NCBI GenBank assembly: GCA_963599255.1
Contig: CAVBWS010000002.1
Coordinates: 6,578 to 70,577, forward strand
Origin: Treponemataceae bacterium
Lineage (GTDB): Bacteria > Bacillota > Clostridia > Lachnospirales > Lachnospiraceae
Length of the DNA stretch: 64,000 bases
Direction: 5' to 3'
Numbering within the stretch: the first letter of the stretch is position 1; every line of letters starts with the position of its first letter. The notes beneath the pieces were generated by a model. The model searched no databases. It was given only the letters and a program-made list of their open reading frames with translations, and was not told the origin of the DNA. This document shows, piece after piece, positions 26,879 to 44,019 of this stretch. The position numbers were made by a program, and so were the translations under genes.

Positions 26879-27589
26879 ATGGAAACCTTTACTGATTGTT
26901 CCAAATTAGATTTTTATATTGAAAAATACAATATCCAGTCCTTTTTCTCCCCGAAATTATGGGAACATTATAGAGAATGTATGGTACTTACACGTTTTCA
27001 TGTAGATGAATACATTCAGAACCATAGAGGTGGAACACACTATTTATATATTTTTTTGAATGGCAAAATAAAGGTCTGTTCCCTCACCAGCAATGGAAAT
27101 GAAGCACTTTTAAACATGATCACAGGTATGTGCGTGATGGGAGATCTAGAAATATTCGATTTGGAAGCTTCCAATATTACCATCGAAGCCATGAAGGATT
27201 CGTATGCCATTGAGCTTCCTCTGGATAAAGTTAAATCATACATCGACCAGGATCCTGTATTTCTGAAATATTTGGGTCAGCTGCTGGCGCAAAAGATCAA
27301 TAATTTTTCCAACAACGTAGCGGTTAATACCAGCTTTCCGCTTATAAATCGACTTAGCGCCTACATTAGCTTTGCAGCGCAGTCGGTGACCTTTTCCGGG
27401 GAAACCTATCTGTATTTTCACGAAGACCTCACCACCTTATCCCAACTGCTTTTTACCAGTTACCGTCATTTACTACGTACCTTAAAGGAGCTGCGGGAGC
27501 TGCAGATCATAGAACCACATAAGCGAGGGTATTTCATCACGGATGAAACCGCACTCCATGCCCTCGCCTCTGATAAGTATCTAAAATAA
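26879..27589 (+). CDS. Crp/Fnr-family transcriptional regulator (cNMP-binding-like domain plus C-terminal HTH; no FNR Cys cluster)
   Basis: 236 aa with beta-roll region YLYIFLNGKIKVCSL...GDLEIF and C-terminal HTH SQLLFTSYRHLLRTLKELRELQII. It is convergent with the 3' end of the GRE operon. Confidence 0.8.
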   Translation: METFTDCSKLDFYIEKYNIQSFFSPKLWEHYRECMVLTRFHVDEYIQNHRGGTHYLYIFLNGKIKVCSLTSNGNEALLNMITGMCVMGDLEIFDLEASNITIEAMKDSYAIELPLDKVKSYIDQDPVFLKYLGQLLAQKINNFSNNVAVNTSFPLINRLSAYISFAAQSVTFSGETYLYFHEDLTTLSQLLFTSYRHLLRTLKELRELQIIEPHKRGYFITDETALHALASDKYLK

Positions 27590-27620: not shown

Positions 27621-27944
27621 TCACTTCTGTTCAAACAGTTCAATGATGGTATCATCCTTGATGATGAATGCCAACCGTGTTTTTTCGTCAAAACTCAATG
27701 GTGGAAAGATTATCTGATCTGCATCTTCCAGATATGGTGTCATATCATCTACTTTGTATGCCACGTGCGGATTTTTGTGCATAATTTCCGGAAATGGCGT
27801 TCCTTCTTCAAATTTCAAGTATTCAATCTTATAATCATAGTCATCCACATCAGTATTAACCCAGAATTTCAGTGTCTCATTGTATACCATATTTGGTTTT
27901 TTATTTGTTACCGGAATTCCTACATGCATATATTCTGCTGCCAT
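27621..27944 (-). CDS. Small VOC (glyoxalase/dioxygenase fold) family protein
   Basis: 107 aa with MHVGIPV and HVAYKVDD metal-ligand-like motifs. It is the last gene of the GRE operon. Confidence 0.55.
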   Translation of the reverse strand: MAAEYMHVGIPVTNKKPNMVYNETLKFWVNTDVDDYDYKIEYLKFEEGTPFPEIMHKNPHVAYKVDDMTPYLEDADQIIFPPLSFDEKTRLAFIIKDDTIIELFEQK

Positions 27945-27962
27945 GTTATACCCTCCATACCA

Positions 27963-28841
27963 TCATTGCTTCGTATCCAAAAAAAATTCGTAAGCTTCCT
28001 TATCCGTGAAGTGCTCGTGTACTACTTTTGCGATTGCCTGTGCCATAGCTCTAGGATTCTCGCTCTGGAAAATATTTCTTCCCATATCAACGCCGTGTGC
28101 TCCCTCACTGATAGCTCGATAAGCCATGGTAAGAGCTTCCTGTTCAGGCAGTTTCTTACCTCCGGCAATGATGATAGGAACCGGACATGCTGCCACAATC
28201 TTTTCAAAATCCTCGCAGTAATATGTCTTAATAAAATGCGCACCATGCTCTGCCAGCATCCTAGTTGCCAGAAGGAAAAACTTCGGTGTCCGTTCCATCT
28301 GCTTTCCTACCGCTACAACACCAAGCACAGGCATGCCATATCGATTACCTGCATCTACGTATCGGCACAATGTTTCCAGAGATCTTGCCTCCCCCGGTGC
28401 ACCAATGAAAGTCTGCACCGCCACTGCCTGGGCATTCATTCGGACAGCATCTTCCATCTCCACACCAATACCATTTCCAACGGACATATCGTCATAAAGA
28501 ACAGATGCGTCATAGGTTGCCCGCAAGCAAACAGACGGGTGCATGGTCGGAGAAAAGCTGGAACGGATCGCCCCTCGTGTACCCATAAATACATCCACAT
28601 ACTCTCCTAACGGTGCAATCGTTACGTCGAGTCTCTCCAATCCTGCCGTAGATCCCATGATATAGCCATGGTCAAAGGCCAGCACTACAGCATTGCCGGA
28701 CACCGGGTTAAAAATATGCGAAAGACGATTTTTCAGTCCAAAGTCATTATTATTAAGTCCCTTCAGATAAAATGCCTCCGATACGACCGGCACATCCAGA
28801 TAATATTCTTTGCTTTCTCTATTTCCAATGTTATCAGCCAC
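27963..28841 (-). CDS. LsrF-like class I aldolase/thiolase (DhnA/FbaB-LsrF family)
   Basis: 292 aa. RLSHIFNPVSGNAVVLAFDHGY..GLERLD..IAPL, FIKTYY (Schiff-base Lys region), IIAGGKKLPE and GVDMGRNIFQS align almost block for block with E. coli LsrF as I recall it. Confidence 0.8.
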   Translation of the reverse strand: MADNIGNRESKEYYLDVPVVSEAFYLKGLNNNDFGLKNRLSHIFNPVSGNAVVLAFDHGYIMGSTAGLERLDVTIAPLGEYVDVFMGTRGAIRSSFSPTMHPSVCLRATYDASVLYDDMSVGNGIGVEMEDAVRMNAQAVAVQTFIGAPGEARSLETLCRYVDAGNRYGMPVLGVVAVGKQMERTPKFFLLATRMLAEHGAHFIKTYYCEDFEKIVAACPVPIIIAGGKKLPEQEALTMAYRAISEGAHGVDMGRNIFQSENPRAMAQAIAKVVHEHFTDKEAYEFFLDTKQ

Positions 28842-28913
28842 AATAAACCTCCTGTTATTTAAATCGCTACGGCGTTTTACCTGTTTTCACATCGGTTACC
28901 GCAGCAGTGTATG

Positions 28914-29909
28914 TTATCGGGAAAATGCAAATGTTCTCGCTGGCGTATTCCATAGTTTCAGGAATTCCTCGTCCCATTTTGAAATGTTGAGTTGAAAACC
29001 TGCCTGTTCCTGAACAGTCAATACCTCTCCTACCATATTGGCAACAACCTCAATTCCCTGAGATTCCAGATACTTTACACAGTCCTTATAAAGTATGAAC
29101 ATTTCCATTAATGTGGTAGCCCCGGATCCATTGACCATCACAAAGCATTTGTCTCCTCTCTTAAGTGGAATATCCTTTATCAGGGCATTTGCCATGATCT
29201 CAATAGTTTCTTTTGCGCTCTTCATTGATTGGCGTCCGCCACCACCTTCACCATGCTGACCCATGCCGATTTCCATATCATCATCACCGAGATCCCCGAA
29301 GGATTCTCCATTAGCCGGATGTGTAGCGCAGCGTACCGCAACAGAAATGGTAGCCATTGAATCCGCATAACGCTGTGCCAGATTAGCAACTTCATCAAGA
29401 TTTCTGCCCTCCCTGGCAGCGGCTGCGGCGATATGGTACAGTGGAACCGCACCGGCAAGACCTCTTCTATCATCAGAATTTTCTCTTGGTGCATTTGCGA
29501 TGTCTTCCTGGGTAACTACTTTACGAACATTCAGTCCCTCTCGCTGTGCCATCTTCATTACCATGTTGCCGCACAACATATCGCCTGCATGATTCAGTAC
29601 CAAAAGCAATGTCCCGTGTCCTTTATCGGCCAGCTTCAACGCTTCAAATACATCTTGTGGACTCGGAGCCGCAAATACATCTCCAACTACCTGAATATCC
29701 AGCATGCCGGATCCCACGAATCCCATCTGTGCCGGCTCATGTCCGGAACCGCCCATGGTAACAATTGTTACCCTGTCCGCTTTTTCCAGATCCCTGCTGA
29801 TTACCAGATGTCCCTTTACCTCTACAAGATCTGCCGCACATAAGCTGTATCCCTCCAGCAGCTCATCCGTTAATGTTTCTGCACTATTTAAAAACTTTTT
29901 CATCTTCAT
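28914..29909 (-). CDS. dhaK: Dihydroxyacetone kinase, DhaK subunit
   Basis: MKMKKFLNS...LEGY, VTMGGSGHEPA and GDVFAAPS are canonical DhaK motifs. The ATG at 29909 lies about 6 nt after GGAGGA. Confidence 0.85.
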   Translation of the reverse strand: MKMKKFLNSAETLTDELLEGYSLCAADLVEVKGHLVISRDLEKADRVTIVTMGGSGHEPAQMGFVGSGMLDIQVVGDVFAAPSPQDVFEALKLADKGHGTLLLVLNHAGDMLCGNMVMKMAQREGLNVRKVVTQEDIANAPRENSDDRRGLAGAVPLYHIAAAAAREGRNLDEVANLAQRYADSMATISVAVRCATHPANGESFGDLGDDDMEIGMGQHGEGGGGRQSMKSAKETIEIMANALIKDIPLKRGDKCFVMVNGSGATTLMEMFILYKDCVKYLESQGIEVVANMVGEVLTVQEQAGFQLNISKWDEEFLKLWNTPARTFAFSR

Positions 29910-29927
29910 GGTATGTTCCTCCATTTG

Positions 29928-30527
29928 CTATGCCTGATAGCCTTTCTGAAATCCCTCAAATATCAACGCCATAGAGCAGGCACCCGCATCCTTTACGCCA
30001 ATGGATCGTTCGCCATAGTTTTTCGCCCGTCCAAATTTTGCTATATAATCGCTTGTTCTCTCTGCCCCTTTTCTGGCCGCCTCTGCTGCCAGTGCAAATG
30101 CCTCTTCATCTGTTTTCGCACCCTTCATCGCTTCCACTGCCGGAATCAGCGCATCCATCATGGTCTTTTCTCCTACCTTCGCGGTACTTAATGTCTGTAA
30201 CTCCTTAAGGGCACATTCTGCGTACTCCGCAGCACTGGCATCCGGCGACGCATTCTGGAAACCGGAGAAAAATGTACCAAACAATGGACCAGCACTTCCG
30301 CCCTGCACATTGATGGCATCCCATCCCAGATCATCGAAAAGCTTTGCAGTAGATTCGTGATCATATTGCACTTTTTCCTTCATTAAATGTGCTATCTTGG
30401 CAATAGTAATACCATGGTCTCCATCCCCGATCACCGCATCAATCTTCGATAGCTCATTTGCATTCTCAAGCAGCAGATCAGCTGTCACATCCAGCATATG
30501 TTTCCACTGTCCTAATGTAATCGCCAT
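29928..30527 (-). CDS. dhaL: Dihydroxyacetone kinase, DhaL (ADP-binding) subunit
   Basis: LSKIDAVIGDGDHGITIAKI and GGSAGPLFGTFF are canonical DhaL motifs. The ATG at 30527 sits at the RpiB stop. The longer ORF-track start lies inside rpiB. Confidence 0.85.
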   Translation of the reverse strand: MAITLGQWKHMLDVTADLLLENANELSKIDAVIGDGDHGITIAKIAHLMKEKVQYDHESTAKLFDDLGWDAINVQGGSAGPLFGTFFSGFQNASPDASAAEYAECALKELQTLSTAKVGEKTMMDALIPAVEAMKGAKTDEEAFALAAEAARKGAERTSDYIAKFGRAKNYGERSIGVKDAGACSMALIFEGFQKGYQA

Positions 30528-30528
30528 A

Positions 30529-30993
30529 TCATACCTCCTGATAAATCTTTTTTTCGATTGCCTTGATCTTCTCCTGTGCATCCAGAAGAAAGTCATGAAA
30601 ATCGTCGAGACCATCCGTAATCTGTGTTTCCAGGAAGGTATCAACAATCTGGCATCCCAAGAACGGAGCAATAATAAACCCTCCCATAGCTAATACATTG
30701 GAATTGTTAATTGCCCGAGACATCTTCGCTGCGAAAGTGCTTTCAACCACAGCCGCACGGATTCCCTGGTAGCTATTTGCCATCTGAGCCATACCCATAC
30801 CAGTGCCGCAGCACAGGATCGCATAGTCAAATTCTCCCTTTTGAAGTGCCGGTGCTATCTCTGGAACAATATCATAGTATTCTCGTGCCTGTGGCGCATA
30901 ATCGATACAGATTATGCCTTTTGCTTCCAAATGTTCCTTTACTGCTTCCTTTAATGCAAAACCGGAAGCATCCGCTCCTATCGCTATCTTCAT
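30529..30993 (-). CDS. RpiB/LacA/LacB-family sugar-phosphate isomerase
   Basis: MKIAIGADASGFALKEAVKEHL and CCGTGMGMAQMANS (catalytic Cys region). Confidence 0.85.
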   Translation of the reverse strand: MKIAIGADASGFALKEAVKEHLEAKGIICIDYAPQAREYYDIVPEIAPALQKGEFDYAILCCGTGMGMAQMANSYQGIRAAVVESTFAAKMSRAINNSNVLAMGGFIIAPFLGCQIVDTFLETQITDGLDDFHDFLLDAQEKIKAIEKKIYQEV

Positions 30994-31081
30994 ATTCCTT
31001 CTTCTCCTTTATCTGTTTACCATTGATCTGAACAATGGTTTTATCTTTTCTTTCACTGCATGCAGCCTTGTGCTATCCAAT

Positions 31082-33556
31082 TTATACTGATAGTTCTTCC
31101 CTCTCCATAATGGATTCCTGCAATTCCTTTGTAAGATCCACGAACACAGCACTATAGCCTCCTACCCGTACCAGCAAATCCCGGTAACTATCCGGATCCT
31201 TCTGTGCACGTGACAGATCCTTTGCATCCAGCACCAAATACTGAATCTGTTGTCCGCCGGCATCCATATAGGTTTTCACCAGATCCATCCATTTTTGAAT
31301 ATCACGTTCGCCTGTCACGGCACTGATCGGAATCCGTTGATTGAAGGTAACGCCATTCGTAGTATGGTATGTATCGATCGCCCTAGCTGCTGAACGATGT
31401 CTCTCTGTGATACTTCCCTCCTGTGCATACCGAGAAGGAGCAACGGAATCTGACAGAGGTTCTTCGTTTCTTCTTCCGTCCGGGGTTGCTCCCGTCCAGC
31501 TTCCAAGCGTAAGGTAGCTTTCCATGCTAATGAGGCCTCCGATAAAATGCCCGCCATGGGCAGTTCGATGCGATTCCAAATTTTCAAACCAATAGTCCAG
31601 AACCTTTTTGCAGAAAAGATCCGCATATGGGTTATCCTTTCCATATTTCGGCGCTTCAATGCATTTCCTGCGAAGCTCCTCGTATCCTTCCCAATTCCTG
31701 GACAGAGCTGTTTTCAATTCTTTCCAATCAGTCACCCTCTCCCGATAAATCAGAGTATCAATAGCGCTCAGACAGTCTCCCGCGGTTCCAAGCCCAATTC
31801 CCAAAGGACCAGTCCAACTGTATCGTGAACCGCCATTTACAAAATCAATACCGCTTTTTCGCGAGGTTGGATGCATCAGATTGTGCCATACTGATGGGTA
31901 AAATGTGGTAAATACATAGTCATTTACATTGTTGGTCACCACGTTCATTTCTACGGCATACCTCATCTGCGCTTCTACCGCAGCCAGAAATTCCTGCATA
32001 GTCGCAAAGCTTTCCGGTTCTCCGGTTACAGGTCCTACCTGTCTTCCATTGCACGGATTAACTCCATTCCAGATGGCAAGCTCAACGGGCTTTACCAGAC
32101 TGAAAAATCCACCATTTTGTCTTCCGGATGTATCCGCTCCCGTCATATTAGGATCCGTTACATTTTCCTGACATCCCACATCCCCATAATTGCGGGCATC
32201 TCCCAGTGACACACCACAATTACTTACCATACCGGGGATTATGGCGTTATCATTAAGAAGCAGCGGCAAGCCACCGCCTAACCTTAATACATCCAATGCT
32301 GCATGAAGCAGCGCGTCCGGCGTTTCATGGTTTATACGAACCGACAGTGCCGGATCTGTCAGATGCACATGGGCATGAGCTTCCAACAACATATATGAAA
32401 GCTCATTGGTTGCGTCATACCCCTGCGTATCGATACCCCCGAGATTGATCTTGTCATTGTTTCCTCTTGGACACCCAATGCCCATAGTAAATGCCGTACT
32501 CTCATTCCATTTCAGGAACAAGCATTCCAGCAGTTCCTGTGCCTGTTTTCTATTGATTTCCCCTGTCTCCAGATCTCGCTTAAGGATAGGCAGCATGTAC
32601 TGATCAAAACGTCCCAAAGAATGAGAGTCCATTCCCTCGATCAGGGAAGTGCCTGCGCGTAGAAAGTGGATGCACTGCAACGCTTCCCACCAGGTCCTGG
32701 CAGGATATTCTGGTACCTGCCGACAATTTTTAGCCATCTGCGAAAGTTCCGCCTTGCGTTTCACATCTGTTTCCTTTTCCGCAAGCTGCTGTGCATAATC
32801 AGCATTTCGATGTGCATAAGTAATCATCGCCTCAGCTGCGATAAGCATCCCCTTCATCTGATCTCGCCGTTCCAGTGTCGTCATTCCCTCCGGGTTTCGG
32901 ATATCCAGCTGTTCCATTTCCTGCCTAATCTCCTGCATCAAACCCGATAGTCCTTTTTCAATAACAGAACGGTAATCCTGGATCGTATGTGCCAACGGAC
33001 CTCCTACCGTCGGAATATAACACTGACTGTCATTCATAAATTGATATGCTTCCGGATAATTCAGCGCCATTTCCTTCAGCAAATAGTCCATACGTCCCTT
33101 GTTTTTCCAATATGGAAGGATCTGCTCCTGAAATTCCCGCAGTTCCTCGGGATCGTAGACATAAATTCGATCCAGCTCCGCACAGGTTCCTTTTTCTGGA
33201 AAATCCAGTGCCGGGAAATGCGGATTAAAATCCACATAATGCGGTCCCGCACTTGCACCTCCCATCAGAAGCTGTCCTTCGGTAAGTCCTAGCGGGATTT
33301 CCTCTAATCCCCGCTTGATGGATAATGCTCTGCGTATCGCCGGATGCAGCCCTTCAGTTTCCATGTAGGAACGAGTCACACTGACTGCCCAATGAAATGA
33401 AAGCCTTCGCTTCCCTTTATAATATCGAGGAAGCATGCCTCGTCGAATTTTCTGAATCCGCTGTTCTTCCGGATCATCCTCTCGCAATATCATTTGGTCA
33501 AAAAACTCTCCGGTAAAGGGCATATTCTTTTCTCTCCACCACGCACTTCCTGCCAT
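31082..33556 (-). CDS. Glycyl radical enzyme of the PFL2/eliminase class; substrate unknown
   Basis: 824 aa with C-terminal glycyl motif LVRVGGYSAVF. The Cys loop is VGCQE, a single Cys followed by Glu as in GRE dehydratases/lyases, not the CC of pyruvate formate-lyase. The ATG at 33556 lies 8 nt after AAGGAG. Confidence 0.9.
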   Translation of the reverse strand: MAGSAWWREKNMPFTGEFFDQMILREDDPEEQRIQKIRRGMLPRYYKGKRRLSFHWAVSVTRSYMETEGLHPAIRRALSIKRGLEEIPLGLTEGQLLMGGASAGPHYVDFNPHFPALDFPEKGTCAELDRIYVYDPEELREFQEQILPYWKNKGRMDYLLKEMALNYPEAYQFMNDSQCYIPTVGGPLAHTIQDYRSVIEKGLSGLMQEIRQEMEQLDIRNPEGMTTLERRDQMKGMLIAAEAMITYAHRNADYAQQLAEKETDVKRKAELSQMAKNCRQVPEYPARTWWEALQCIHFLRAGTSLIEGMDSHSLGRFDQYMLPILKRDLETGEINRKQAQELLECLFLKWNESTAFTMGIGCPRGNNDKINLGGIDTQGYDATNELSYMLLEAHAHVHLTDPALSVRINHETPDALLHAALDVLRLGGGLPLLLNDNAIIPGMVSNCGVSLGDARNYGDVGCQENVTDPNMTGADTSGRQNGGFFSLVKPVELAIWNGVNPCNGRQVGPVTGEPESFATMQEFLAAVEAQMRYAVEMNVVTNNVNDYVFTTFYPSVWHNLMHPTSRKSGIDFVNGGSRYSWTGPLGIGLGTAGDCLSAIDTLIYRERVTDWKELKTALSRNWEGYEELRRKCIEAPKYGKDNPYADLFCKKVLDYWFENLESHRTAHGGHFIGGLISMESYLTLGSWTGATPDGRRNEEPLSDSVAPSRYAQEGSITERHRSAARAIDTYHTTNGVTFNQRIPISAVTGERDIQKWMDLVKTYMDAGGQQIQYLVLDAKDLSRAQKDPDSYRDLLVRVGGYSAVFVDLTKELQESIMEREELSV

Positions 33557-33586
33557 AGTCCAATCTCCTTCATTCATGCAGTCTCT

Positions 33587-34609
33587 CTAAAACAAGAAAA
33601 CCACCTTCGTCGCTTTATGATTTTTTACCAGATTGAATCCATACACACAGTCTTCTGGCTGCAATACATGACTAATATATTCATAAGGATTAATCTTTCC
33701 TTCTAATACAAGCTGCGCCATTTCTTCATTGGCATCTTCTTCATCCGGCCAGCGCACCCACACACGAGGGTCATTACGCAGTTCAGGTGCCCAGGAAAGT
33801 CCCGGAGCTGCGCCATAGAGCTGTACGGTTCCCTTTTCCCCTACAACATCCAGACAAGTCTTAAGTGCACTGTCGCTTCCAACAGCTTCGATTACCTTTA
33901 ACAGGCCTCCGTCATCAAGTATCTTTTTTAGTTCATCCGGATATTTATCACCAACGACATACAGGTCTGCTCCCGCCGCAGTGAATTTCTCTCGATGATC
34001 CTCTTTTCTGCCAAATACCACTATAGGACTTGCTCCCATTACCTTAGCAAACTTGGTAAAGCAATATGCCACAGGGCCGGTACCTACTATGCCCAGTGGT
34101 TCGCCTGCCTTGACATCAAAGTTTCTGAGAGTAGTCCATGTCTCTTTCAGCGTGATCATGATCGCTCCCTGTACGCTGTCGATTCCCTTCGGCAGGATCT
34201 GATGCTTAGTCGCCTGATAATTTAACGGAATATCAGCTCCATCTTCTTTTATCGCTGCCAGATCCTGTACAACACCATATTCACTCATGCCGCCTTCTGA
34301 ACCAATCCCTCCAGGATAATGACCCCAAGTATGGGCACGAAGCACCCTGTCACCGATCTTAAAATTTCGGCATTTCTCGCCCAATTCAATGACCACACCA
34401 CAGGATTCATGTCCCAAATTAATAGGCAGTCCTTCCGGGAATCCACCGCCTTCAGGTCCTCCAAATACGCGGTTAACAAACATCATGTCTGTATTGTTGC
34501 AGATAGCGCAGGCCTCAATCTTTACCAACGCTTCATAAGGTCCAGGCTTTGGTACAGGGATCTCCCCCAGCATAACTTTTCCCGGTTCCGATGAAATGAT
34601 TGTCTTCAT
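33587..34609 (-). CDS. Zinc-dependent medium-chain alcohol/polyol dehydrogenase
   Basis: CAICNNTD and GHESCGVV are the Zn ligands. GIVGTGPVA is the Rossmann motif. Confidence 0.8.
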   Translation of the reverse strand: MKTIISSEPGKVMLGEIPVPKPGPYEALVKIEACAICNNTDMMFVNRVFGGPEGGGFPEGLPINLGHESCGVVIELGEKCRNFKIGDRVLRAHTWGHYPGGIGSEGGMSEYGVVQDLAAIKEDGADIPLNYQATKHQILPKGIDSVQGAIMITLKETWTTLRNFDVKAGEPLGIVGTGPVAYCFTKFAKVMGASPIVVFGRKEDHREKFTAAGADLYVVGDKYPDELKKILDDGGLLKVIEAVGSDSALKTCLDVVGEKGTVQLYGAAPGLSWAPELRNDPRVWVRWPDEEDANEEMAQLVLEGKINPYEYISHVLQPEDCVYGFNLVKNHKATKVVFLF

Positions 34610-34637
34610 ATGTAATACCTCCATTTTTTTGATAACT

Positions 34638-35558
34638 TTATCCGCCTGTTTCTACGCGGAATCCCTTCTGTTCCAGATAGCGTTTCCACTGCTCCAACTC
34701 TGTTGTATCTTCTGCAGATTGCCGAAGTGCTTTTTTCTCCGGCAGCGCATAATCTCTTCCCAACCTTTTGTATTTATCTTTCCCCAATTGATGAAAAGGC
34801 ATCAGATGAATTTCCCGAACAGCGGTATCCTGTAAAAATGCTGCCAGCATCCTCAGATTTTCCTTTTGAAAATTAAGTCCAGGGATTACCGGTATCCGGA
34901 TAATGATCCTGCTTCCGTGTTTTATAAGACGCCGCAGATTTTCCAATATCAGGTCATTCGATACACCCGTTAACGTTTTATGAATCTGCGGATCCATATG
35001 CTTCAGATCATACAGAAAAAGATTTGTATACTCTGCTGCCTGCTCCAAGATTCTCCATTTCGTATTACCCGTGGTTTCCACTGCCGTATTGATATTTCGT
35101 TTGTAACAGTTCTCAAGGATCCCAATTGCAAATTCCTCTTGCAAAAAGGGTTCTCCTCCGGAAAGGGTGATGCCGCCTCCAGATTTTCGATAATAATCCC
35201 TGTCCCTTTGTACCTGTGCCACAACCTCCTCAACAGACATTTGTTTTCCCACCATGCGAAGCGCTCCGACAAAACAATGTTCCGTACAGATACCGCAGTT
35301 GTCACATACAGTCCTGTCAATCTGATTGCACCGCTGACCCTCGAAAATCGTAATAGCATGCCGCGGGCATACAATAATGCATTTGCCGCATTTGATACAT
35401 TTCTGATACCTATATTCCAGTTCTGGAAAAGTATGCTGGGATTCCGGATTGCAGCACCAAAGGCATCGCAAGGGACAGCCCTTTAAAAATACCACCGTCC
35501 GAATTCCAGGTCCGTCATGAGTTGAATATTTCTGGATATCAAATACTGTTCCTTTCAT
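34638..35558 (-). CDS. Glycyl-radical enzyme activating enzyme (radical SAM, with two auxiliary ferredoxin-like clusters)
   Basis: CPLRCLWCCN is the CxxxCxxC motif. CIKCGKCIIVCP and CDNCGICTEHC are the auxiliary clusters. GGGITLSGGEP is the SAM motif. Confidence 0.9.
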   Translation of the reverse strand: MKGTVFDIQKYSTHDGPGIRTVVFLKGCPLRCLWCCNPESQHTFPELEYRYQKCIKCGKCIIVCPRHAITIFEGQRCNQIDRTVCDNCGICTEHCFVGALRMVGKQMSVEEVVAQVQRDRDYYRKSGGGITLSGGEPFLQEEFAIGILENCYKRNINTAVETTGNTKWRILEQAAEYTNLFLYDLKHMDPQIHKTLTGVSNDLILENLRRLIKHGSRIIIRIPVIPGLNFQKENLRMLAAFLQDTAVREIHLMPFHQLGKDKYKRLGRDYALPEKKALRQSAEDTTELEQWKRYLEQKGFRVETGG

Positions 35559-36352
35559 CAGGTGTTAAATTCCGGATTTTCTTCCGGCTTATAAATGTAC
35601 GGAATCATAACTTTGCCACCATCAATTAAAATATTTTCTGCAGTGATCCAGCCAGAATATTCATCACTTGCCAGTACCACGCACATGCGCCCATGGTCCT
35701 TATAGCAATCACCACAACGTCCCAGTGGAATAGTTTCCGCAATTTTATCTGCTACCTCATGCATAAAAGTATTCATACCGGTAGGGGTTGGTCCCGGAGC
35801 AATAGAATTGACACGGATATGATGAGGAGCCAGTACCCCAGCCAGTGCCAATGTTATCGCTTGTACACCGCCTTTTGATGCGCTGTAACCCACGCCCTCC
35901 GGAAAGCAGGAAGAAACGGCCTCTGAAGAAAAATTCACTATAGAACCGTGCACCTTATTTTCAATCATGGTTTTTGCAACAATCTGTGTCACGATGAATA
36001 CACTCTCCAGATTTATCTTCACTTCCCTTTCAAATTCCTCCACCGTCTGCTCAAAGAAATCCTTCCAGTAAATTACACCGGCATTGTTGATCAAGGTTGT
36101 AACCGGTCCAAAAGTGTCGATAGTAAGCTGTACCATCGCCTTTACGCTTTCCGGATCCGTTACATCTACTCTGGTCGCAATCGCTCTGCCGCCCGCATCT
36201 GTGATCTCTTTCGCAACGTTTTTTGCATTTTCCTCATTAAGGTCACATACCATAACTGCTGCACCGTGATCTGCCAAGGCCATAGCAACGCCTCTGCCGT
36301 TTCCGCGCCCACTTCCTGTAACGATAGCCACCTTGTCATTTAACTGTAACAT
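35558..36352 (-). CDS. SDR-family oxidoreductase
   Basis: VTGSGRGNGRG (TGxxxGxG variant), NNAG and YSASKGG (YxxxK) motifs. The stop shares 1 nt with the activase start. Confidence 0.9.
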   Translation of the reverse strand: MLQLNDKVAIVTGSGRGNGRGVAMALADHGAAVMVCDLNEENAKNVAKEITDAGGRAIATRVDVTDPESVKAMVQLTIDTFGPVTTLINNAGVIYWKDFFEQTVEEFEREVKINLESVFIVTQIVAKTMIENKVHGSIVNFSSEAVSSCFPEGVGYSASKGGVQAITLALAGVLAPHHIRVNSIAPGPTPTGMNTFMHEVADKIAETIPLGRCGDCYKDHGRMCVVLASDEYSGWITAENILIDGGKVMIPYIYKPEENPEFNT

Positions 36353-36406
36353 CTGTTTCTCCTCCTATTTTTATGTTCTCTATCGTGTTTTCTTTTTTGT
36401 ATCTCA

Positions 36407-36479
36407 ATTATAAAATCCTGTTCCTTTTTCTTCGCTGACACATGTCACATAAAGTCGATTATTTATATGACAAATGTCA
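36407..36479 (-). promoter_or_regulatory. Promoter/operator region of the GRE operon: -10 TATAAT plus two TGACA-NN-TGTCA palindromes
   Basis: On the minus strand TATAAT lies at 36412..36407. Palindromes TGACACATGTCA (36436..36447) and TGACAAATGTCA (36468..36479) are 32 bp apart. The proximal site ends 23 nt upstream of the -10. Confidence 0.5.
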
Positions 36480-36576
36480 CAGCAATATCAGAGTTAAAAA
36501 AACGGGATCCTGATAAATATCAGAATCCCGAAAAAAAGGTAGGGCATAAAAGCAACCTCGCTTTTACCACAATATA

Positions 36577-37779
36577 TTATTTCCATGTACCTGCTCCTGC
36601 CACCAGGATCTCCTGAGGTACATGGCTTAACCGAACCGCTCCATTTATTCCTGTCAGGAAGTTGTCGCAGCAGAATATGTATGCATCCTCAGTAATTCCG
36701 AAAGGATGAATAGCAATATTCATGTTTTCTTCTATCCGCATTGTCTCCGCCTCATAGATTACCGGACGTTCTGCCAACTCATAACCCTGTCCATGAGAGA
36801 AGATCATTCCACGGTTCGGATAATCCCGCTCTCGCATAAACCTTTCGTTGAAGGCTGCTATCTCCTTCGGCGACGCACCTTTTTTCATAAGAGCGGCCGC
36901 TTGCTGCTGTGCTTCTCTGGCGATTTCCCAGCCCCTTAGCAGCCGTTTGGAAGGTTCACCGATACAGATAGTTCTTCCTACCTCTTGATACATGCCGCCC
37001 GGTCCGCTGACCTCCAGCATCACCAGTACCTGATCTCCCGGCTGCAATATCCGTTTCATCAGATAGTCCATTTTATGAGACGCCGGCATTCCCATGGGAG
37101 CTGAACCTACCACGATCATCTGCTCCTCGCTTCCAAGTTCCACCAGAAGATGCCTGATATCATTTGCCACCTCATACTCACGTCTTCCGGGACGCACAAA
37201 GGCAGGAACTGCTGCAAATGCAGCATCTACAATATCAGCTGTCTTTTTTATCAGTGCAATTTCTTCTTCACTCTTAACGCACTTGATGCTGTCAGTTTCT
37301 TCTGTAAAATCCACAAATTCCGCATCCGGAAGCGACTCTTTCAGACAACGCCAGGTAGCCGCAGACATGGCAGCAGGTGCTATCAGACCAATTTTCTGAT
37401 ATCCTCCATTTTTCAACACAGCAACAGCTGCATCACCATCTTCCCGATTGGTATAATGTATCCCACGATAATAAGGAAGCACAATATCCTCACGAATGCC
37501 GCGCATCATCCATGACGGCAGGGTCAGAGAAGGGATATTGCCCTCGGTAATAATGGTCATCTCTTCCTCCAACGGAAAGATTACCGTAATAGGGGTTCCG
37601 AATTTTGTGGGTATATCCGTAAACCAACGAACATAGCCACACATGAAGGATTCACTGTTTTGCAGTACCAGACAATCCAACCCAGCATCTTTCATTTTTC
37701 TTCTGACAGCTCTCCAGCGTCTATTTAACTCCTGATCCGATATCGGATATAATGCATTTTCTAATAATTCCCTATCCAT
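36577..37779 (-). CDS. M24-family (Xaa-Pro peptidase/creatinase-fold) hydrolase
   Basis: 400 aa with an N-terminal creatinase-like domain (DAGLDCLVLQNSE) and a C-terminal pita-bread region (FSHGQGYELAERPVIYE, MNIAIHPF). Confidence 0.7.
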   Translation of the reverse strand: MDRELLENALYPISDQELNRRWRAVRRKMKDAGLDCLVLQNSESFMCGYVRWFTDIPTKFGTPITVIFPLEEEMTIITEGNIPSLTLPSWMMRGIREDIVLPYYRGIHYTNREDGDAAVAVLKNGGYQKIGLIAPAAMSAATWRCLKESLPDAEFVDFTEETDSIKCVKSEEEIALIKKTADIVDAAFAAVPAFVRPGRREYEVANDIRHLLVELGSEEQMIVVGSAPMGMPASHKMDYLMKRILQPGDQVLVMLEVSGPGGMYQEVGRTICIGEPSKRLLRGWEIAREAQQQAAALMKKGASPKEIAAFNERFMRERDYPNRGMIFSHGQGYELAERPVIYEAETMRIEENMNIAIHPFGITEDAYIFCCDNFLTGINGAVRLSHVPQEILVAGAGTWK

Positions 37780-37792: not shown

Positions 37793-38761
37793 CTATTCTG
37801 TTTTGGACTCTGCCAACTTCTTTTTATCCGACCTGAGGTTTATCCCCTCTGTACGAATGGTGATAAATAAGATCACCATCAGCAGTATTCCCTCAATCAG
37901 TTCTGAGTATTCGCTGGACGCAATTCCCATCAGCTTTAAACCATTTTCAATAATAACAAATACCAGACATCCAATGATCATCTTATAGGTTGAAGCGGTA
38001 GAACCACCTTTTACAAGGATACCTCCTACATAGATCGCGATCAGAGAACGCATTTCAAACATAGTACCCATGGAAGTTGTCGTACCTCCGCTTCTTGCAA
38101 TGATAAACATTCCTGCAATCGCGGCAGTCAGTCCAGAGATCATAAAGCAGATTATTTTCAAACTGATCACTGGCTTTCCAACGCTGACAGCCAGCACTTC
38201 ATTTTCACCGATTGCCTTGATATCCCTTCCGAATGAGGTACGTTCCAGAAAGTACCATGAAAACGCAAGCACCAAAAGCAGGAATGGAAGTTTAATACAA
38301 ACCTTATCAATAGCCTTGATAAATGTGCCGGCATATGTAAGTCCCGTAAAGCTTTGAATATAATTTATAATACCCCTAACCCCGATCAGCATAGCAAGAG
38401 TTACCATGAAAGATGGTACCTTGAATTTTGCGTTGATGATGCCATTTAAAGCACCTAGTCCAATGCCTATCGCAAATGCAGTAAGCAGCATCAGCAGTAC
38501 ACTCCCCGTTGCTGTAAATACAACATCTCCTACTACAGCGCTTAGTCCTGCGTTAACGCCTACAGAAAGATCACTGCATCCAAGTGCTACCACAAAAATT
38601 GCCCCACTGCACAAAACCAGCAGCACCACGACCTGATTCAACAAAGAATTCAAGTTAAATGGTGTAAACATTTTCCCTTTAGTCAGAATCCCAAAGAGCA
38701 GCAGGATCACCACCAAAGTGATAAAAGGAACCAGTTTTCGTATATCGATTCTATTCTTCAT
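37793..38761 (-). CDS. Ribose/monosaccharide-type (CUT2) ABC transporter permease
   Basis: 322 aa, RbsC-like polytopic protein. Its ATG shares 1 nt with the ATPase stop. Confidence 0.85.
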   Translation of the reverse strand: MKNRIDIRKLVPFITLVVILLLFGILTKGKMFTPFNLNSLLNQVVVLLVLCSGAIFVVALGCSDLSVGVNAGLSAVVGDVVFTATGSVLLMLLTAFAIGIGLGALNGIINAKFKVPSFMVTLAMLIGVRGIINYIQSFTGLTYAGTFIKAIDKVCIKLPFLLLVLAFSWYFLERTSFGRDIKAIGENEVLAVSVGKPVISLKIICFMISGLTAAIAGMFIIARSGGTTTSMGTMFEMRSLIAIYVGGILVKGGSTASTYKMIIGCLVFVIIENGLKLMGIASSEYSELIEGILLMVILFITIRTEGINLRSDKKKLAESKTE

Positions 38762-40266
38762 CAGACCATCACCTCGATCAATGCTTCCTGGGTAAAATTC
38801 TCTCCCCGTATAAATTCTCCTGTAATTTTTCCGTCCTTCATCACCAATAATCTATCCGACATGCCCAACAGTTCCGGAAGTTCATCCGAGATCAAAATCA
38901 TGGAAAGTCCTTTTTTCTTTGCTTCTGCCATAACATGGTAGATATACGCCTTGACACTGACATCCACTCCTCGGGTCGGGCAGTCCAGTACCAACACATT
39001 CAGATCTTTTAAAAGCCACCTTCCCAGGTTGACCTTCTGCTTATTGCCGCCTGAAAGGTCCGACATACGCTGTCCCGGTCCGACGCATTTGACATTAAAT
39101 TCCTCGATTCCCTTCTGCGCAAATGCTTTCAGTTTGCCTGGCCGCAGATACATTGCCTTTCCCTGCAATTCCTGTGTTGATGGAAGGACGAAATTGCTTA
39201 GTATCGTATCTGAGATCATGAGAGCTGCTCCATCTCTGTCCTTTGGTACATATGCCATACCATGTTTTTGTGCCGTAACAGCATTGTTGATTTCGACATT
39301 CTCCTGCATGCACAGGCGAACTTCTCCCTTTCGTCCTTCAGAAAGTCCAAAAATCGCCATACCTACATCATGGATACCAGAGTCACTCAGTCCGCCAAAT
39401 CCCAGGATTTCTCCCTTGTGAAGTTCAAAAGAAACCCCTTCCAATGCATGCGGGACCTCCACATTTTCTACCTTCAGCACAACCTCATCCTCATAGTTTG
39501 CTTCCAAATCTTCCCGATAGTATGCAGAATTAACCTCTCGGCCTACCATCAGACGTTTAATCTCATCTACCGTCAGTTCGCTGCTTTTTCGATCTGCTAT
39601 GATCTTGCCATCCCGCAGCACAGTAATGTTATCGCACAGCTCCAACATTTCCTCTAGGTCATGGGTAATGATCACAATGGTCTTACCTTCACTTTTCAGA
39701 CGATGGATCAACCGATAGAGCATTTCCCTGTTATTTTGAGACAATGACTGGGTCAGCTCATCCAGAATCAAAATGTCCGGATCTTCAGACAGCGCCCTGG
39801 CAAGTTCCAGCATTTTCCGGGATTCGATATGCATTTCCGAGCAGTCTCCGTTCAGAGGGATTTTCATCAGCCCATATTCCTCAAATATTTCCTCTGCCTT
39901 CCGATACATCTTCTTGATGTTCACGAAGCCATATTTGGCAAAACGATCCCAGCTTCCCGCAAAAACATTCATGCCTGCAGGCAGCGTGTTCAGTACGCCC
40001 AGCTCCTGCACTACAATGCCGATCTTATTCTTTTTTGCATCTAATGGACTTTTGGGATCATAAGATTTTCCATGTAATGTAATGGTTCCCTCATCCTTTA
40101 GATAAATACCGGCTATCTGCTGCAAAAGCGTGGATTTTCCAGATCCGTTTTCTCCCGCCAGTCCTCGTACTTCACCCTTTTGCAGTGAAAAATCAATATG
40201 GTCATTGGCGATAGTCGGTCCAAAATATTTGCAAAGTCCTTTTACCTCTAAAATTGTTTCCATCAT
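38761..40266 (-). CDS. Sugar ABC transporter ATP-binding protein with two fused ABC domains (RbsA/LsrA-like)
   Basis: 501 aa with GENGSGKST and a second ABC half containing LSGGNKQK. Confidence 0.9.
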   Translation of the reverse strand: MMETILEVKGLCKYFGPTIANDHIDFSLQKGEVRGLAGENGSGKSTLLQQIAGIYLKDEGTITLHGKSYDPKSPLDAKKNKIGIVVQELGVLNTLPAGMNVFAGSWDRFAKYGFVNIKKMYRKAEEIFEEYGLMKIPLNGDCSEMHIESRKMLELARALSEDPDILILDELTQSLSQNNREMLYRLIHRLKSEGKTIVIITHDLEEMLELCDNITVLRDGKIIADRKSSELTVDEIKRLMVGREVNSAYYREDLEANYEDEVVLKVENVEVPHALEGVSFELHKGEILGFGGLSDSGIHDVGMAIFGLSEGRKGEVRLCMQENVEINNAVTAQKHGMAYVPKDRDGAALMISDTILSNFVLPSTQELQGKAMYLRPGKLKAFAQKGIEEFNVKCVGPGQRMSDLSGGNKQKVNLGRWLLKDLNVLVLDCPTRGVDVSVKAYIYHVMAEAKKKGLSMILISDELPELLGMSDRLLVMKDGKITGEFIRGENFTQEALIEVMV

Positions 40267-41222
40267 TTCACCACCTTCTTTACGCCTCGCTGTGCCATGA
40301 TACCAAATACAATTACGATCAAGCCCAGCACAGCTTCCTGCAGAGTTCCGGATGGAACACCTGCAATGGTCAGCATATTAAAAAGCGCATAAACAAAAAG
40401 CGAACATATAGGAACACCAATTATGATATTAATACGAGATTTTAAGACTTGTGCCAGCATAACAGCCGCAATAGGCTGAAAGATCATAGTCATGCCGGTA
40501 AGTCCACTCTTAATATTCATACGTGAATTATAGCTTTCATTCAGGAACGCAGAACAACCCACAAATATTCCCACAATGATACCCACGAGTAAAATTGTTT
40601 TTACAATGTTAATACCCATGGCTTCGGAGATGCGCTGTCCGCTTCCCAGGGAGCGGACCTTCAGTCCAATCGTTGTGTAATTATAAAGAACATACGCAAG
40701 AATAAAACCAACGAAAAATACAACATAGATCATAGGTGCCCTTGCAAGTTCCCGCATATCCTCACTCAACTGGGCGATAGATCCTCCATGGGAGAACTGA
40801 TAATTGGAGTAAAAAACTCCGACCGCCTCATAGACCATTACCATGCCGATGCTGACAATCCACGACGGAATCCTTGATTTGGCAAACAGCAGAAAATTGA
40901 TCATGACACAGATAATAGATACCACCATGGCTCCCAGAATGATCCCAAAATATCCCAGTGATGTTGAGCCCAGAATGCCGGCTGCATTTGCAGCAAGGAT
41001 TACAATTGGGCCTAACGACATATCAGTAAAATCACAGGCAAATACAAAGCACAGTGCCCACCCCAAAAAACACGGAATGATCGCATGTGGAAAAAGCGCA
41101 AGAATGTTATTGCTTGTCAGGAATATCCGTCCGGTAAGAAAATGAAAAACGATACATACCACAGCAACCAATGCAAGAACGATCACAAGACGGACGATAC
41201 TTTTCTTCTTTTTTGTCTCCAT
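40263..41222 (-). CDS. Ribose/monosaccharide-type (CUT2) ABC transporter permease
   Basis: 319 aa, polytopic and RbsC-like, with a 4-nt overlap with the ATPase gene. Confidence 0.85.
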   Translation of the reverse strand: METKKKKSIVRLVIVLALVAVVCIVFHFLTGRIFLTSNNILALFPHAIIPCFLGWALCFVFACDFTDMSLGPIVILAANAAGILGSTSLGYFGIILGAMVVSIICVMINFLLFAKSRIPSWIVSIGMVMVYEAVGVFYSNYQFSHGGSIAQLSEDMRELARAPMIYVVFFVGFILAYVLYNYTTIGLKVRSLGSGQRISEAMGINIVKTILLVGIIVGIFVGCSAFLNESYNSRMNIKSGLTGMTMIFQPIAAVMLAQVLKSRINIIIGVPICSLFVYALFNMLTIAGVPSGTLQEAVLGLIVIVFGIMAQRGVKKVVK

Positions 41223-41285
41223 AAAAATCCACCCTTCTCCTTAACGAGGTCGGTACTGACTCGCACCGGCCTCGTTTTTCTATAG

Positions 41286-42383
41286 TCAGTCTGTGCTTGT
41301 CTCTATACCGTAGTTCTCGATAAATTCCACGAAGGTCTCATATGTTGCATCGTCTGCAATAAGCTCTGCGAAATGCTCCGCCGTAAGAGGATGTCCTTCC
41401 AGATAATATTTAGAAAAATCGTCTGCATTATCTGCTGTAATAACAAACGGAACCACATTGTTGAAATGCGGAGCATTTCCGTCTTTGTCAGTTATGCGGT
41501 TGCCTTTTGCATTATTGATAAGCAGTGCAGAAGCGATAGGGATAACGATCTTAGAACCGCTGTCCGCGTAAGCGATCGTTCCATCTTTAATATATTGGAT
41601 ATTTTCTGCTGTTGCACCGGATACATATATCTTTAAATCCAGATCACTGTGATTATTCAGTGCCGCAATAGCTGCTACTGCATAGTCACCTGAAAGAGCA
41701 TAAATTGCTTGTGCCTGTGTGTTAGCGATCAGAAGATCATCACATTTCTGAGTTCCTTCAGAAGGATCCGTACATCTGGCAGCTGCCATCAGGGTTCCTC
41801 CTCCTTCGGTAAACGCATCTGTAAATCCTGCCACGCGCTTGTCATGAATTGTATCTCCTACTGAACCGCCCAAAACCAGAGCCTGTGTATAACCATCTGC
41901 CAGCATATTCTGTGCTGCCTGTACACCTTCTGCATAGCTATCTGTACCTACACAACCCAAATAGTATTCATTTTCATTGAGCATTGCGAGCACTGCTTCA
42001 TCATTAGGGATCTGATCAAACATGGTAAAATACGTACCGGCCGATTTCAGGATGGATGAAATCTGCTCATACGCAGCCGTATTCCATCCATATATCAAAA
42101 GCCCGTCATAGCCTCGGCCCGCCATTGTTTCCACATTAGACATCTGCATATCTGCAGTAAAGTTGTCATTGTAAATCTGGAAGGTATAACCAGCGTTTTC
42201 AAAATTGTACTGCATCTCACTGACGAACAGATCCAGTGCAGCACCTCCCTGTCCTACAATGTCTCCCGCAAAGCTGTAGTCTGCCGCCTTTGTAATCTGT
42301 GCATTTAGACCACTTGCAGATACCAAAATTACCCCCATAGCAACCGCAAGAATCTTTACCGAATTTTTTCTTGAAATTGTCAT
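41286..42383 (-). CDS. Periplasmic-binding-protein type I (RbsB/LsrB-like) sugar-binding protein
   Basis: About 365 aa from the ATG at 42383, about 6 nt after GGAGGA. It has a signal/anchor sequence but no lipobox Cys. Confidence 0.8.
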   Translation of the reverse strand: MTISRKNSVKILAVAMGVILVSASGLNAQITKAADYSFAGDIVGQGGAALDLFVSEMQYNFENAGYTFQIYNDNFTADMQMSNVETMAGRGYDGLLIYGWNTAAYEQISSILKSAGTYFTMFDQIPNDEAVLAMLNENEYYLGCVGTDSYAEGVQAAQNMLADGYTQALVLGGSVGDTIHDKRVAGFTDAFTEGGGTLMAAARCTDPSEGTQKCDDLLIANTQAQAIYALSGDYAVAAIAALNNHSDLDLKIYVSGATAENIQYIKDGTIAYADSGSKIVIPIASALLINNAKGNRITDKDGNAPHFNNVVPFVITADNADDFSKYYLEGHPLTAEHFAELIADDATYETFVEFIENYGIETSTD

Positions 42384-42452
42384 CTCTGTTTCCTCCATTT
42401 CATCCATAAAATAATTTTTCCAGCCTTCTCTGGTTCCCTTCCTTACAGCATT

Positions 42453-43902: not shown

Positions 43903-44019
43903 TCATTAGTCCAAAGTCTGTAAGACTTCTGTTAAATTATGCACTGCCAAGTCACAGTGCAAGATGTATTTTACAGGAGTCTCTGCATTTTGTCAAGAAC
44001 AACGAAGGAAGGAAATCTT

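Follow-up and report, generated by a model that had tools for sequence, protein, structure and literature searches.

The 64,000-nucleotide stretch of contig CAVBWS010000002.1 from a Treponemataceae bacterium (hereafter "the window") very probably harbors a real, uncharacterized and functionally coupled pathway built around a glycyl radical enzyme (GRE). The locus is most likely a co-regulated, two-operon catabolic system, predicted to act on an imported neutral sugar or sugar alcohol with a C5 skeleton. Every protein family involved is known, and the novelty lies in the GRE clade, in its being coupled to LsrF, DhaKL and VOC proteins, and in the existence of that module as a widespread unit. 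Targeted full-text literature searches found no publication describing this cluster or pathway. The preliminary description of the region had argued that no known GRE pathway has this gene context, and this holds for the GREs covered in a June 2026 review, i.e., GD (glycerol dehydratase), PD (propanediol dehydratase), HpfG, HypD, HpyG, HpzG, CutC, IslA/IseG, HpsG, HplG, YbiW and PflD, none of which has it. According to that review, most GRE clades are still unannotated.

Organization and conservation of the locus

Analysis of open reading frames (ORFs) with Pfam and NCBIfam recovered the nine co-directional genes in the order originally proposed, tightly packed on the minus strand between 27621 and 36352:

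35558-36352, minus strand: short-chain dehydrogenase/reductase (SDR), first gene of the enzyme operon (Pfam adh_short, 175 bits)
34638-35558, minus strand: GRE-activating radical SAM enzyme, or activase (TIGR02494, 379 against a cut-off of 174; Radical_SAM and Fer4 domains)
33587-34624, minus strand: Zn-dependent medium-chain dehydrogenase (Zn-ADH/MDR), polyol/threonine dehydrogenase-like (Pfam ADH_N and ADH_zinc_N)
31082-33577, minus strand: GRE, 831 aa (PFL-like PF02901, 500 bits; Gly_radical PF01228, 69 bits)
30529-30993, minus strand: divergent RpiB/LacAB-family isomerase (Pfam LacAB_rpiB PF02502, 128 bits)
29928-30527, minus strand: DhaL-family kinase subunit, nucleotide-binding (Pfam Dak2 PF02734, 133 bits)
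28914-29924, minus strand: DhaK-family kinase subunit, substrate-binding (Pfam Dak1 PF02733, 325 bits)
27963-28841, minus strand: LsrF orthologue (NF006081, 385 bits against a cut-off of 297)
27621-27944, minus strand: 107-aa VOC-fold metalloprotein without a Pfam or NCBIfam match (fold from AlphaFold2 (AF2) and Foldseek)

The SDR and activase genes overlap by one base, and the gaps that follow measure 13 nt (activase-ADH), 9 nt (ADH-GRE), 88 nt (GRE-RpiB), 1 nt (RpiB-DhaL), 3 nt (DhaL-DhaK), 72 nt (DhaK-LsrF) and 18 nt (LsrF-VOC); the DhaL ATG begins 1 nt past the RpiB stop codon. Within the enzyme operon, the only matches to a terminator-like consensus are weak and short-stemmed. The nine-gene unit is confirmed, but it is not the whole of the system, as the functional unit reaches upstream to about 42530 and adds an atypical M24 hydrolase, an ABC transporter and operators shared by both operons:

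37793-42407, minus strand: CUT2-type monosaccharide/polyol ABC importer (Pfam Peripla_BP_4; NCBIfam), consisting of the next four genes
41286-42407, minus strand: substrate-binding protein (SBP) of the importer (Pfam Peripla_BP_4)
40263-41222, minus strand: importer permease 1
38761-40266, minus strand: fused importer ATPase, nearest to xylose/ribose/arabinose ATPases, all below cut-off
37793-38761, minus strand: importer permease 2
36577-37779, minus strand: atypical M24 (pita-bread fold) hydrolase (Pfam Peptidase_M24 PF00557, 92 bits, and Creatinase_N)
36503-36530, minus strand: intrinsic-terminator-like hairpin after the M24 gene, with a 12-bp stem and a T run
36436-36448 and 36468-36480: two operator-like palindromes GTGACA-NN-TGTCA, 32 bp apart, upstream of the SDR gene
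42483-42495 and 42515-42527: two operator-like palindromes GTGACA-NN-TGTCA, 32 bp apart, upstream of the SBP gene
26879-27589, plus strand: Crp/Fnr-family regulator, convergent with the end of the operon (Pfam cNMP_binding and HTH_Crp_2)

Given the terminator-like hairpin, the locus probably comprises two transcription units. The palindrome GTGACA-NN-TGTCA occurs four times in the window, each time within one of the two promoter regions, against 0.75 occurrences expected by chance, and a count of four was reached in none of 100 shuffles. The same arrangement is present at an Anaerotignum locus (L004), and exact copies were found in no other lineage examined; a Brotonthovivens locus (L001) has a related palindrome, GGACATATGTCC, in both promoters as well as the palindrome TGACATATGTCA upstream of its Crp-family gene. 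When the operator palindrome was looked for in the other lineages, the L090 genome was found to lack it. A Crp-family orthologue occupies the same position in L001, L004, L005 and L006 (48-92% identity). The two operons are predicted to be co-regulated through this common palindromic operator.

The M24 protein matches the fold but not the canonical D,D,H,E,E metal ligands, in place of which it has E256, E266, H329, E337 and H358, and these residues are invariant across 41-96% identity. An ordinary prolidase was rejected on account of this altered ligand set. Just upstream of the transporter promoter lies a 287-aa ORF (42682-43545, minus strand) with a weak partial match to the C-C hydrolase PhlG (DAPG (diacetylphloroglucinol) hydrolase). 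This ORF is conserved only at the Anaerotignum locus (91% identity) and has its own strong promoter-like site (43590-43618), with a divergent LysR gene at 43939-44934.

Shell genes had been reported absent, which agrees with a tblastn search of the window with manually entered PduA and EutN query sequences that gave no significant match, and with the absence of the bacterial microcompartment (BMC) domain from all Pfam-annotated ORFs of the window. A GRE-associated microcompartment (GRM) locus was rejected since BMC-H and BMC-P shell genes were not detected.

The conservation survey comprised a scan of 185,579 species genomes together with contig look-ups. The full gene set is present in four other Bacillota lineages, syntenic with rearrangements:

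Anaerotignum sp. (L004): GRE identity 93%
Eubacterium sp. metagenome-assembled genome (MAG): GRE identity 74%
Brotonthovivens ammoniilytica (L001): GRE identity 71%
L090 genome (3.2 Mb): GRE identity 64%

The order of the core is fixed (activase-ADH-GRE-RpiB-DhaL-DhaK-LsrF-VOC), with the Zn-ADH gene directly upstream of the GRE gene in all lineages, and the SDR is 70-98% identical across the other lineages. The M24 gene is found in all lineages in varying positions (after the transporter or between SDR and activase), the transporter lies beside the enzymes on either the upstream or the downstream side, and the regulators differ between lineages (LysR/Crp or SorC). That the gene set survived such reshuffling is better explained by a functional link than by one block inherited from a recent common ancestor. 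Every GRE relative of at least 64% identity with sufficient flanks has the DhaKL/RpiB/LsrF/VOC module directly downstream, which answers in the affirmative whether the DhaKL/LsrF neighborhood is conserved. This module-fused GRE clade is rare: clustering at 90% identity leaves eight clusters with at least 64% identity. In L090, pta-ackA is found directly downstream of the cluster, as would be expected because the proposed route would produce acetyl-CoA. The GRE (697 aa) and activase of L090 look truncated, possibly by assembly frameshifts.

The glycyl radical enzyme and the back-end enzymes

The GRE has the PFL-like barrel, C-terminal glycine-radical domain, Cys loop and nearby activase of its superfamily. 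The two motifs first noticed in the sequence were located at residues 804-810 (glycyl motif RVGGYSA) and around Cys469 (Cys loop GCQE), and both C469 and E471 are invariant in the clade alignment. The preliminary description had made its case depend beforehand on the GRE lying outside the characterized isofunctional groups. This is what was found, as the GRE scores below every NCBIfam equivalog cut-off (score/cut-off: HypD, the best, 467/1100; TIGR01774, GD/PFL2 subfamily, 451/678; HpfG 423/1000; HpsG 411/1000; CutC 398/1050; PRK09983 333/1109; IAD 268/1100; HPAD 240/1150; PFL 84/994). Comparison with solved structures gave 416 bits for GD (1r8w), 407 for PD, 394 for GRM3-PD, 372 for HypD, 367 for HpzG and 354 for CutC, with weaker scores for YbiW/PflD (260-283 bits). 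The enzyme is about equally distant from all solved eliminases.

The equivalents of H164, H281/S282 and C433-x-E435 of GD (1r8w) are kept in the window GRE, but the pocket differs from that of GD at three places (Y339-Q-N corresponds to N374-D-K, D447 to N488 and Y640-P to I683-S684), and a 4-residue insertion follows CQE. Among GREs of 44-96% identity these pocket residues vary little or not at all, and the pocket has invariant Asn, Asp and Lys residues without an Arg pair. Such a polar, Arg-poor pocket would be consistent with a neutral polyhydroxy substrate larger than glycerol. On these comparisons the GRE is assigned to an uncharacterized clade of the CxE eliminase/isomerase type. A canonical glycerol or propanediol dehydratase was rejected, as the GRE misses the cut-off, differs in its pocket residues and is accompanied by the wrong partner genes; PDB entry 9RCO is the GRM3 propanediol dehydratase and not a relative of new function.

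The activase gene lies one gene (Zn-ADH) upstream of the GRE gene, and its product has a CX3CX2C motif and ferredoxin-like clusters. No protein of the cluster is less conserved (48-54% identity versus 58-85% for its neighbors; L001:8120-8899, L090:7820-8437), and the activase is shorter elsewhere, with 259 aa in L001 and 205 aa in L090 versus 306 aa in the window, which suggests that the ferredoxin-like insert may have been lost or that the gene was replaced by a non-orthologous one.

More distant GREs have other neighbors. In Chloroflexi, GREs of 52-57% identity (L007-L014 and L023, e.g., L010:8925-13400) have only the activase in common with the window cluster; an IolG-like Gfo/Idh/MocA dehydrogenase gene is divergently adjacent in three of these loci, and the DhaKL/LsrF module is absent. 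Clostridia MAGs (L016:9037-22489, also L017, L018 and L022) contain a sister GRE clade of 43-48% identity with a different conserved cluster, in the order activase, GRE, pyruvate dehydrogenase (PDH)-like E1alpha/E1beta/E2/E3, dihydropyrimidinase, hydantoinase/carbamoylase-family amidase, lipoate-protein ligase (LplA), metallo-beta-lactamase (MBL)-fold protein and sigma-54 activator. The dihydropyrimidinase scores above its equivalog cut-off, and the sister clade may belong to a further GRE pathway that is as yet undescribed, with a cyclic ureide or pyrimidine-like compound as substrate.

The LsrF-like protein passes the equivalog cut-off of NF006081 with residues 1-292 of 292 on profile positions 1-291, and it can be aligned over its entire length with LsrF of E. 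coli (3gkf, 298 bits). Residues D57/H58 (AFDHGY), K203 (IKTYY), G226/G227 (IAGGKK) and D251-M-G-R254 (GVDMGRN) are kept. In LsrF, the residues with assigned roles are the Schiff-base Lys203, Asp57/His58, Asp251 and a phosphate site formed by G226/G227/G253/R254, and related aldolases carry Ala or Ser where LsrF has D251 (PMC2728841). The second-best solved relative is MJ0400, of the ADH synthase family that uses DKFP (6-deoxy-5-ketofructose-1-phosphate), at 99 bits, and the match to NF005556 (ADH synthase, 168 bits) is below its cut-off of 241. We propose that the protein is a 3-hydroxy-2,4-pentadione-5-phosphate thiolase giving dihydroxyacetone phosphate (DHAP) and acetyl-CoA. Given the close orthology to LsrF and the kept residues, these are the most probable products, and a C5 skeleton is by extension the most probable one.

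Both kinase subunits fall below their equivalog cut-offs (DhaK 289 versus 406 for dihydroxyacetone (DHA) kinase; DhaL 129 versus 138 for TIGR02365). Taken as a DHA kinase, the pair has the Dak1 and Dak2 domains but neither an equivalog-level score nor a DhaM donor; none of DhaM, LsrK, LsrG and LuxS was found among the window ORFs scanned. The RpiB-like enzyme scores above the cut-off of TIGR00689 (103.5 versus 88.3) and below that of TIGR01120 (107 versus 139). In all five lineages it keeps the catalytic Cys (CGTG), and the two ring-opening His residues are replaced by Ala and Ile in alignments with solved RpiBs, which end before the C-terminal motif. Relative to a manually entered E. coli reference, the changes are H10 to Ala and H99 to Ile, with the GGRHxxR phosphate motif replaced, and all five lineages share them. 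A canonical RpiB acting on ribose-5-phosphate was rejected because the phosphate-binding and ring-opening residues are lost.

The assignment of the small protein to the VOC fold (paired beta-alpha-beta-beta-beta modules), first made from the sequence alone, was borne out by structure prediction. The AF2 model (pLDDT 91) has BH1468 (3oa4), glyoxalase I (3hdp, 2qh0), including Ni-glyoxalase I, and methylmalonyl-CoA epimerase (MCEE, 3rmu) as its best Foldseek matches (probability 1.0, TM 0.6-0.66), and the protein also matches glyoxalase I in a profile search (E = 0.002). Residues H7, E41, H60 and E102 are invariant in a 26-sequence alignment and make up the H/E-E-H-E metal site. The protein is proposed to be an enediol-type isomerase or epimerase of the diketopentose.

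VOC homologues about 70% identical to the window protein occur across Clostridia, Fusobacteria, Spirochaetes, Synergistetes and Desulfovibrio, and in many phyla they accompany DhaL-DhaK, with or without LsrF. Six contexts of VOC homologues were examined, five of them distinct, and they fell into three types. Four of the six (Bacilliculturomica and three contigs) combine a SorC/LsrR-family regulator with DhaL, DhaK, an LsrF-like protein and VOC (106 aa). One gut MAG has DhaL-DhaK-LsrF-VOC behind DUF386 and DUF89, and a Fusobacteriaceae contig has DhaL-DhaK-VOC only. The standalone modules are located as follows:

L083:5796-10321
L091:5252-9321
L093:5239-9321
L084:7401-10324
L086:8291-10333

Their proteins are orthologous to the window counterparts (41-77% identity), no transporter is adjacent, and in comparison with the six standalone contexts the RpiB-like gene is present only in the GRE-fused version. 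Because the back end also occurs alone, the window locus can be read as a GRE front end fused onto a pre-existing, widespread module. LsrR, the repressor of the autoinducer-2 (AI-2) system, is a SorC-family protein, and the SorC/LsrR-type regulators beside the standalone module thus link it to chemistry of the DPD (4,5-dihydroxy-2,3-pentanedione) type. The standalone module may be an Lsr-independent route for the salvage or quenching of DPD (AI-2); no literature on a standalone SorC-DhaL-DhaK-LsrF-VOC module was found.

Proposed pathway and alternatives

Dehydration, redox steps, phosphorylation by DhaKL, isomerization and LsrF-type cleavage had been suggested from the gene order, and this is also the best reading here. 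The analysis itself establishes gene content, family membership, residue conservation, synteny, the operators common to both operons and the modular build of the locus; which compound enters, what regiochemistry the GRE follows, how the steps are ordered and what the M24 protein does are what we infer. The specific scheme, which leads from a C5 compound through 3-hydroxy-2,4-pentanedione-5-phosphate (P-HPD) to DHAP and acetyl-CoA, is put forward tentatively but could well be right.

In this scheme, the CUT2 ABC transporter would import a neutral sugar or sugar alcohol, with which the pentose-like importer ATPase is consistent. The M24 hydrolase, SDR and Zn-ADH would prepare the compound by releasing or opening it or by turning a polyol into a ketose; the dehydrogenases would admit pentitols or oxidize a 1-deoxypentulose. 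The activated GRE would then carry out a radical 1,2-elimination of water, leaving a methyl-ketone (1-deoxy) end and thus a 1-deoxy-diketopentose of the DPD or HPD (3-hydroxy-2,4-pentanedione) type, for example in the conversion of a 2-pentulose to 3-hydroxy-2,4-pentanedione. Among GREs, HpsG, YbiW and PflD provide precedents for the formation of a methyl ketone. Enediol chemistry of the VOC protein, the RpiB-like enzyme or both would interconvert the keto-hydroxy isomers and place the carbonyl at C4, beside the terminal CH2OH. DhaK-type kinases require a carbonyl next to the CH2OH that is phosphorylated, and LsrF requires 3-hydroxy-2,4-pentanedione-5-phosphate. DhaKL would phosphorylate the terminal hydroxyl to give P-HPD, from which the LsrF orthologue would move the acetyl group to CoA, yielding DHAP and acetyl-CoA.

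Several points weigh against this scheme. It needs no dehydrogenase from a pentose or pentulose and one from a pentitol, so that two dehydrogenases and two isomerases exceed its minimal form. Whether the GRE forms an aldehyde or a methyl ketone is not readable from its sequence, and the wholly different neighbors of GRE relatives at 43-57% identity make family-level inference weak. The best structural matches of the VOC protein (glyoxalase I and MCEE) suit a role in methylglyoxal metabolism equally. The importer SBP has weak matches in PDB (E about 1e-5) and NCBIfam, with no characterized binding protein among them. The role of the M24 protein is unexplained, and three distant homologues (44-47% identity) sit in unrelated contexts. 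Finally, a simple scan for sigma-70 promoters revealed none that was convincing in the interval from the terminator to the SDR gene.

Of the alternatives, a C6 deoxy-diketo route would start from a hexitol or 1,5-anhydrohexitol and proceed through 1-deoxyhexulose (GRE), 6-deoxy-5-ketofructose (dehydrogenase) and DKFP (DhaKL) to DHAP and methylglyoxal, the LsrF-like protein serving as a class I aldolase and the glyoxalase-like VOC protein and second dehydrogenase clearing the methylglyoxal. Both dehydrogenases would be employed in this way, and Ni-glyoxalase I is among the best structural matches of the VOC protein. Further points in its favor are the rank of MJ0400 and the 168-bit match to NF005556, the precedent of YbiW/PflD, in which a GRE makes a 1-deoxyketose from anhydrohexitols, and the Gfo/Idh/MocA dehydrogenase that adjoins the Chloroflexi GRE relatives. 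Nevertheless, it is the LsrF cut-off that is passed and the ADH synthase cut-off that is missed (168 versus 241), MJ0400 reaches 99 bits only, and D251, at whose position related aldolases have Ala or Ser (PMC2728841), is kept. The GRE is also farther from YbiW/PflD (260-283 bits) than from GD and PD, pta-ackA adjoins the cluster in one lineage, SorC/LsrR-type regulators accompany the standalone module, and the RpiB-like enzyme and M24 would be left without explanation. We consider a C6 substrate unlikely.

The cluster might instead consist of two independent neighbors, i.e., a diol-type dehydratase unit (SDR/activase/ADH/GRE) whose aldehyde product is reduced or oxidized, and a separate RpiB-DhaL-DhaK-LsrF-VOC unit for the salvage of DPD/AI-2 or dihydroxyacetone-like compounds. 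This appears improbable, as the module is directly downstream of every flanked GRE of at least 64% identity even though the transporter, M24 gene and regulators have changed position, the genes lie close together (88, 1 and 3 nt) with internal terminator-like matches that are weak and short-stemmed, and the operators are common to both operons. Although the back-end module is found alone in many genomes with its own regulator, it has none of its own in the window, and the RpiB-like gene occurs only in the fused version. GRE relatives of 57% identity or less do lack the module, and the nearest solved structures are glycerol and propanediol dehydratases, but the GRE pocket is unlike that of GD and PD at three of the positions compared.

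A tetritol/tetrulose route, in which SDR, DhaKL and the RpiB-like enzyme would take threitol through erythrulose and erythrulose-4-phosphate to erythrose-4-phosphate and the GRE and LsrF-like protein would make the tetrulose from a larger precursor (e.g., by thiolytic splitting of 1-deoxy-2,4-hexodiulose to acetyl-CoA and erythrulose), is very unlikely: the SDR matches the GolD/DthD subfamily and the RpiB-like protein the D-erythrulose-4-phosphate isomerase model, and the triad of SDR, DhaK-type kinase and RpiB reportedly makes up the tetritol pathway of Mycobacterium smegmatis, but both matches are far below cut-off (159 versus 286 and 93 versus 240, respectively), the RpiB-like protein is without the phosphate-binding motif expected of a tetrulose-phosphate isomerase, and DhaKL has as its orthologue the kinase that accompanies LsrF and VOC in the absence of RpiB.

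If the C5 scheme is true, free sugars and polyols are a new substrate class for glycyl radical eliminases, and gut Bacillota have a pentose-level route to DHAP and acetyl-CoA that bypasses the pentose phosphate and phosphoketolase reactions. LsrF-type thiolases would then act as ordinary catabolic enzymes beyond quorum sensing. The standalone DhaKL-LsrF-VOC module of Clostridia, Fusobacteria, Synergistetes, Spirochaetes and Desulfovibrio would be a candidate consumer of AI-2/DPD in organisms thought to lack Lsr, which would bear on interspecies signaling in the gut. More doubtful is a bolder version, in which the GRE would turn a free pentulose, pentitol or ketopentitol into DPD/HPD and so provide both a LuxS-independent enzymatic source of an AI-2-type diketone within gut anaerobes and a radical, phosphoketolase-like route from C5 to C3 plus C2, with the standalone module performing a hitherto unrecognized Lsr-independent salvage or quenching of DPD/AI-2 in many anaerobes. 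As Brotonthovivens ammoniilytica is a cultured carrier, the hypothesis is directly testable.

Elsewhere in the window, four ORFs gave no Pfam match (9935-12559, minus strand, 874 aa; 21190-22272, plus strand, 360 aa; 45827-47440, minus strand, 537 aa; 48349-49410, minus strand, 353 aa), and the 537-aa ORF was also without an NCBIfam match. A region on the minus strand (5470-9250) encodes circularly permuted ATP-grasp, Alpha-E domain, transglutaminase-like and AstE/AspA-like proteins, an association that is conserved and poorly understood. Glycogen genes are present on the plus strand at 57002-63082 (glucan phosphorylase, two GlgC/GlgD-type nucleotidyltransferases and glycogen synthase), preceded by genes for a LysR regulator and an NAD(P)HX dehydratase.

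Comparison with known systems

The tetritol pathways of M. smegmatis employ the SDR DthD, the DhaK-type kinases DerK and LerK, and the RpiB-type isomerase DerI. These act on short acyclic ketoses, and the window cluster likewise combines members of the SDR, DhaK kinase and RpiB isomerase families. Unlike the window cluster, these pathways have no GRE, LsrF or VOC protein, and the equivalog scores of the window proteins are far below cut-off.

GD (1r8w) and PD (5i2a, 9rco) are the best-scoring solved relatives of the window GRE (394-416 bits), with which they share the CxE Cys loop, the His164 equivalent, H281/S282 and the glycyl motif, and the window activase has ferredoxin-like clusters as in those systems. 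In contrast to GD and PD loci, the window locus has neither microcompartment genes nor an Fe-ADH or aldehyde dehydrogenase as partner, and its downstream enzymes are of sugar type.

In terms of chemistry, the closest precedents are the "anhydroglycolysis" isomerases YbiW and PflD, together with HpsG, where abstraction of a hydrogen from a carbinol carbon is followed by loss of the neighboring C1 leaving group. The products are methyl ketones, 1-deoxyfructose-6-phosphate for YbiW/PflD and hydroxyacetone for HpsG, and after the YbiW/PflD step the 1-deoxyketose is split into a triose phosphate and a small carbonyl fragment. The substrates of these enzymes are phosphorylated or sulfonated before the GRE step, whereas here the kinase is proposed to act after the GRE, and cleavage would be carried out by a CoA-dependent thiolase-type enzyme.

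The Lsr pathway for AI-2 in E. coli and Salmonella consists of the kinase LsrK, the isomerase LsrG, the thiolase LsrF, the importer LsrACDB and the SorC-family repressor LsrR. A canonical lsr operon was rejected, as LsrK, LsrG and LsrB were not found in the cluster or among the scanned window ORFs. Neither an FGGY kinase (LsrK) nor an ABM-fold LsrG is present among these ORFs, DhaKL and the VOC protein being found instead; the window SBP is not LsrB-like, and a GRE, two dehydrogenases, an RpiB-like enzyme and an M24 protein are added upstream. What the two systems share is a terminal LsrF orthologue with conserved catalytic residues, an importer of the same CUT2 architecture and, in other genomes, SorC-family regulators beside the module. 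The logic is also alike, in that a substrate is isomerized, phosphorylated and cleaved to DHAP and acetyl-CoA, with DhaKL and VOC in place of LsrK and LsrG probably reversing the order, so that isomerization would come first and phosphorylation second.

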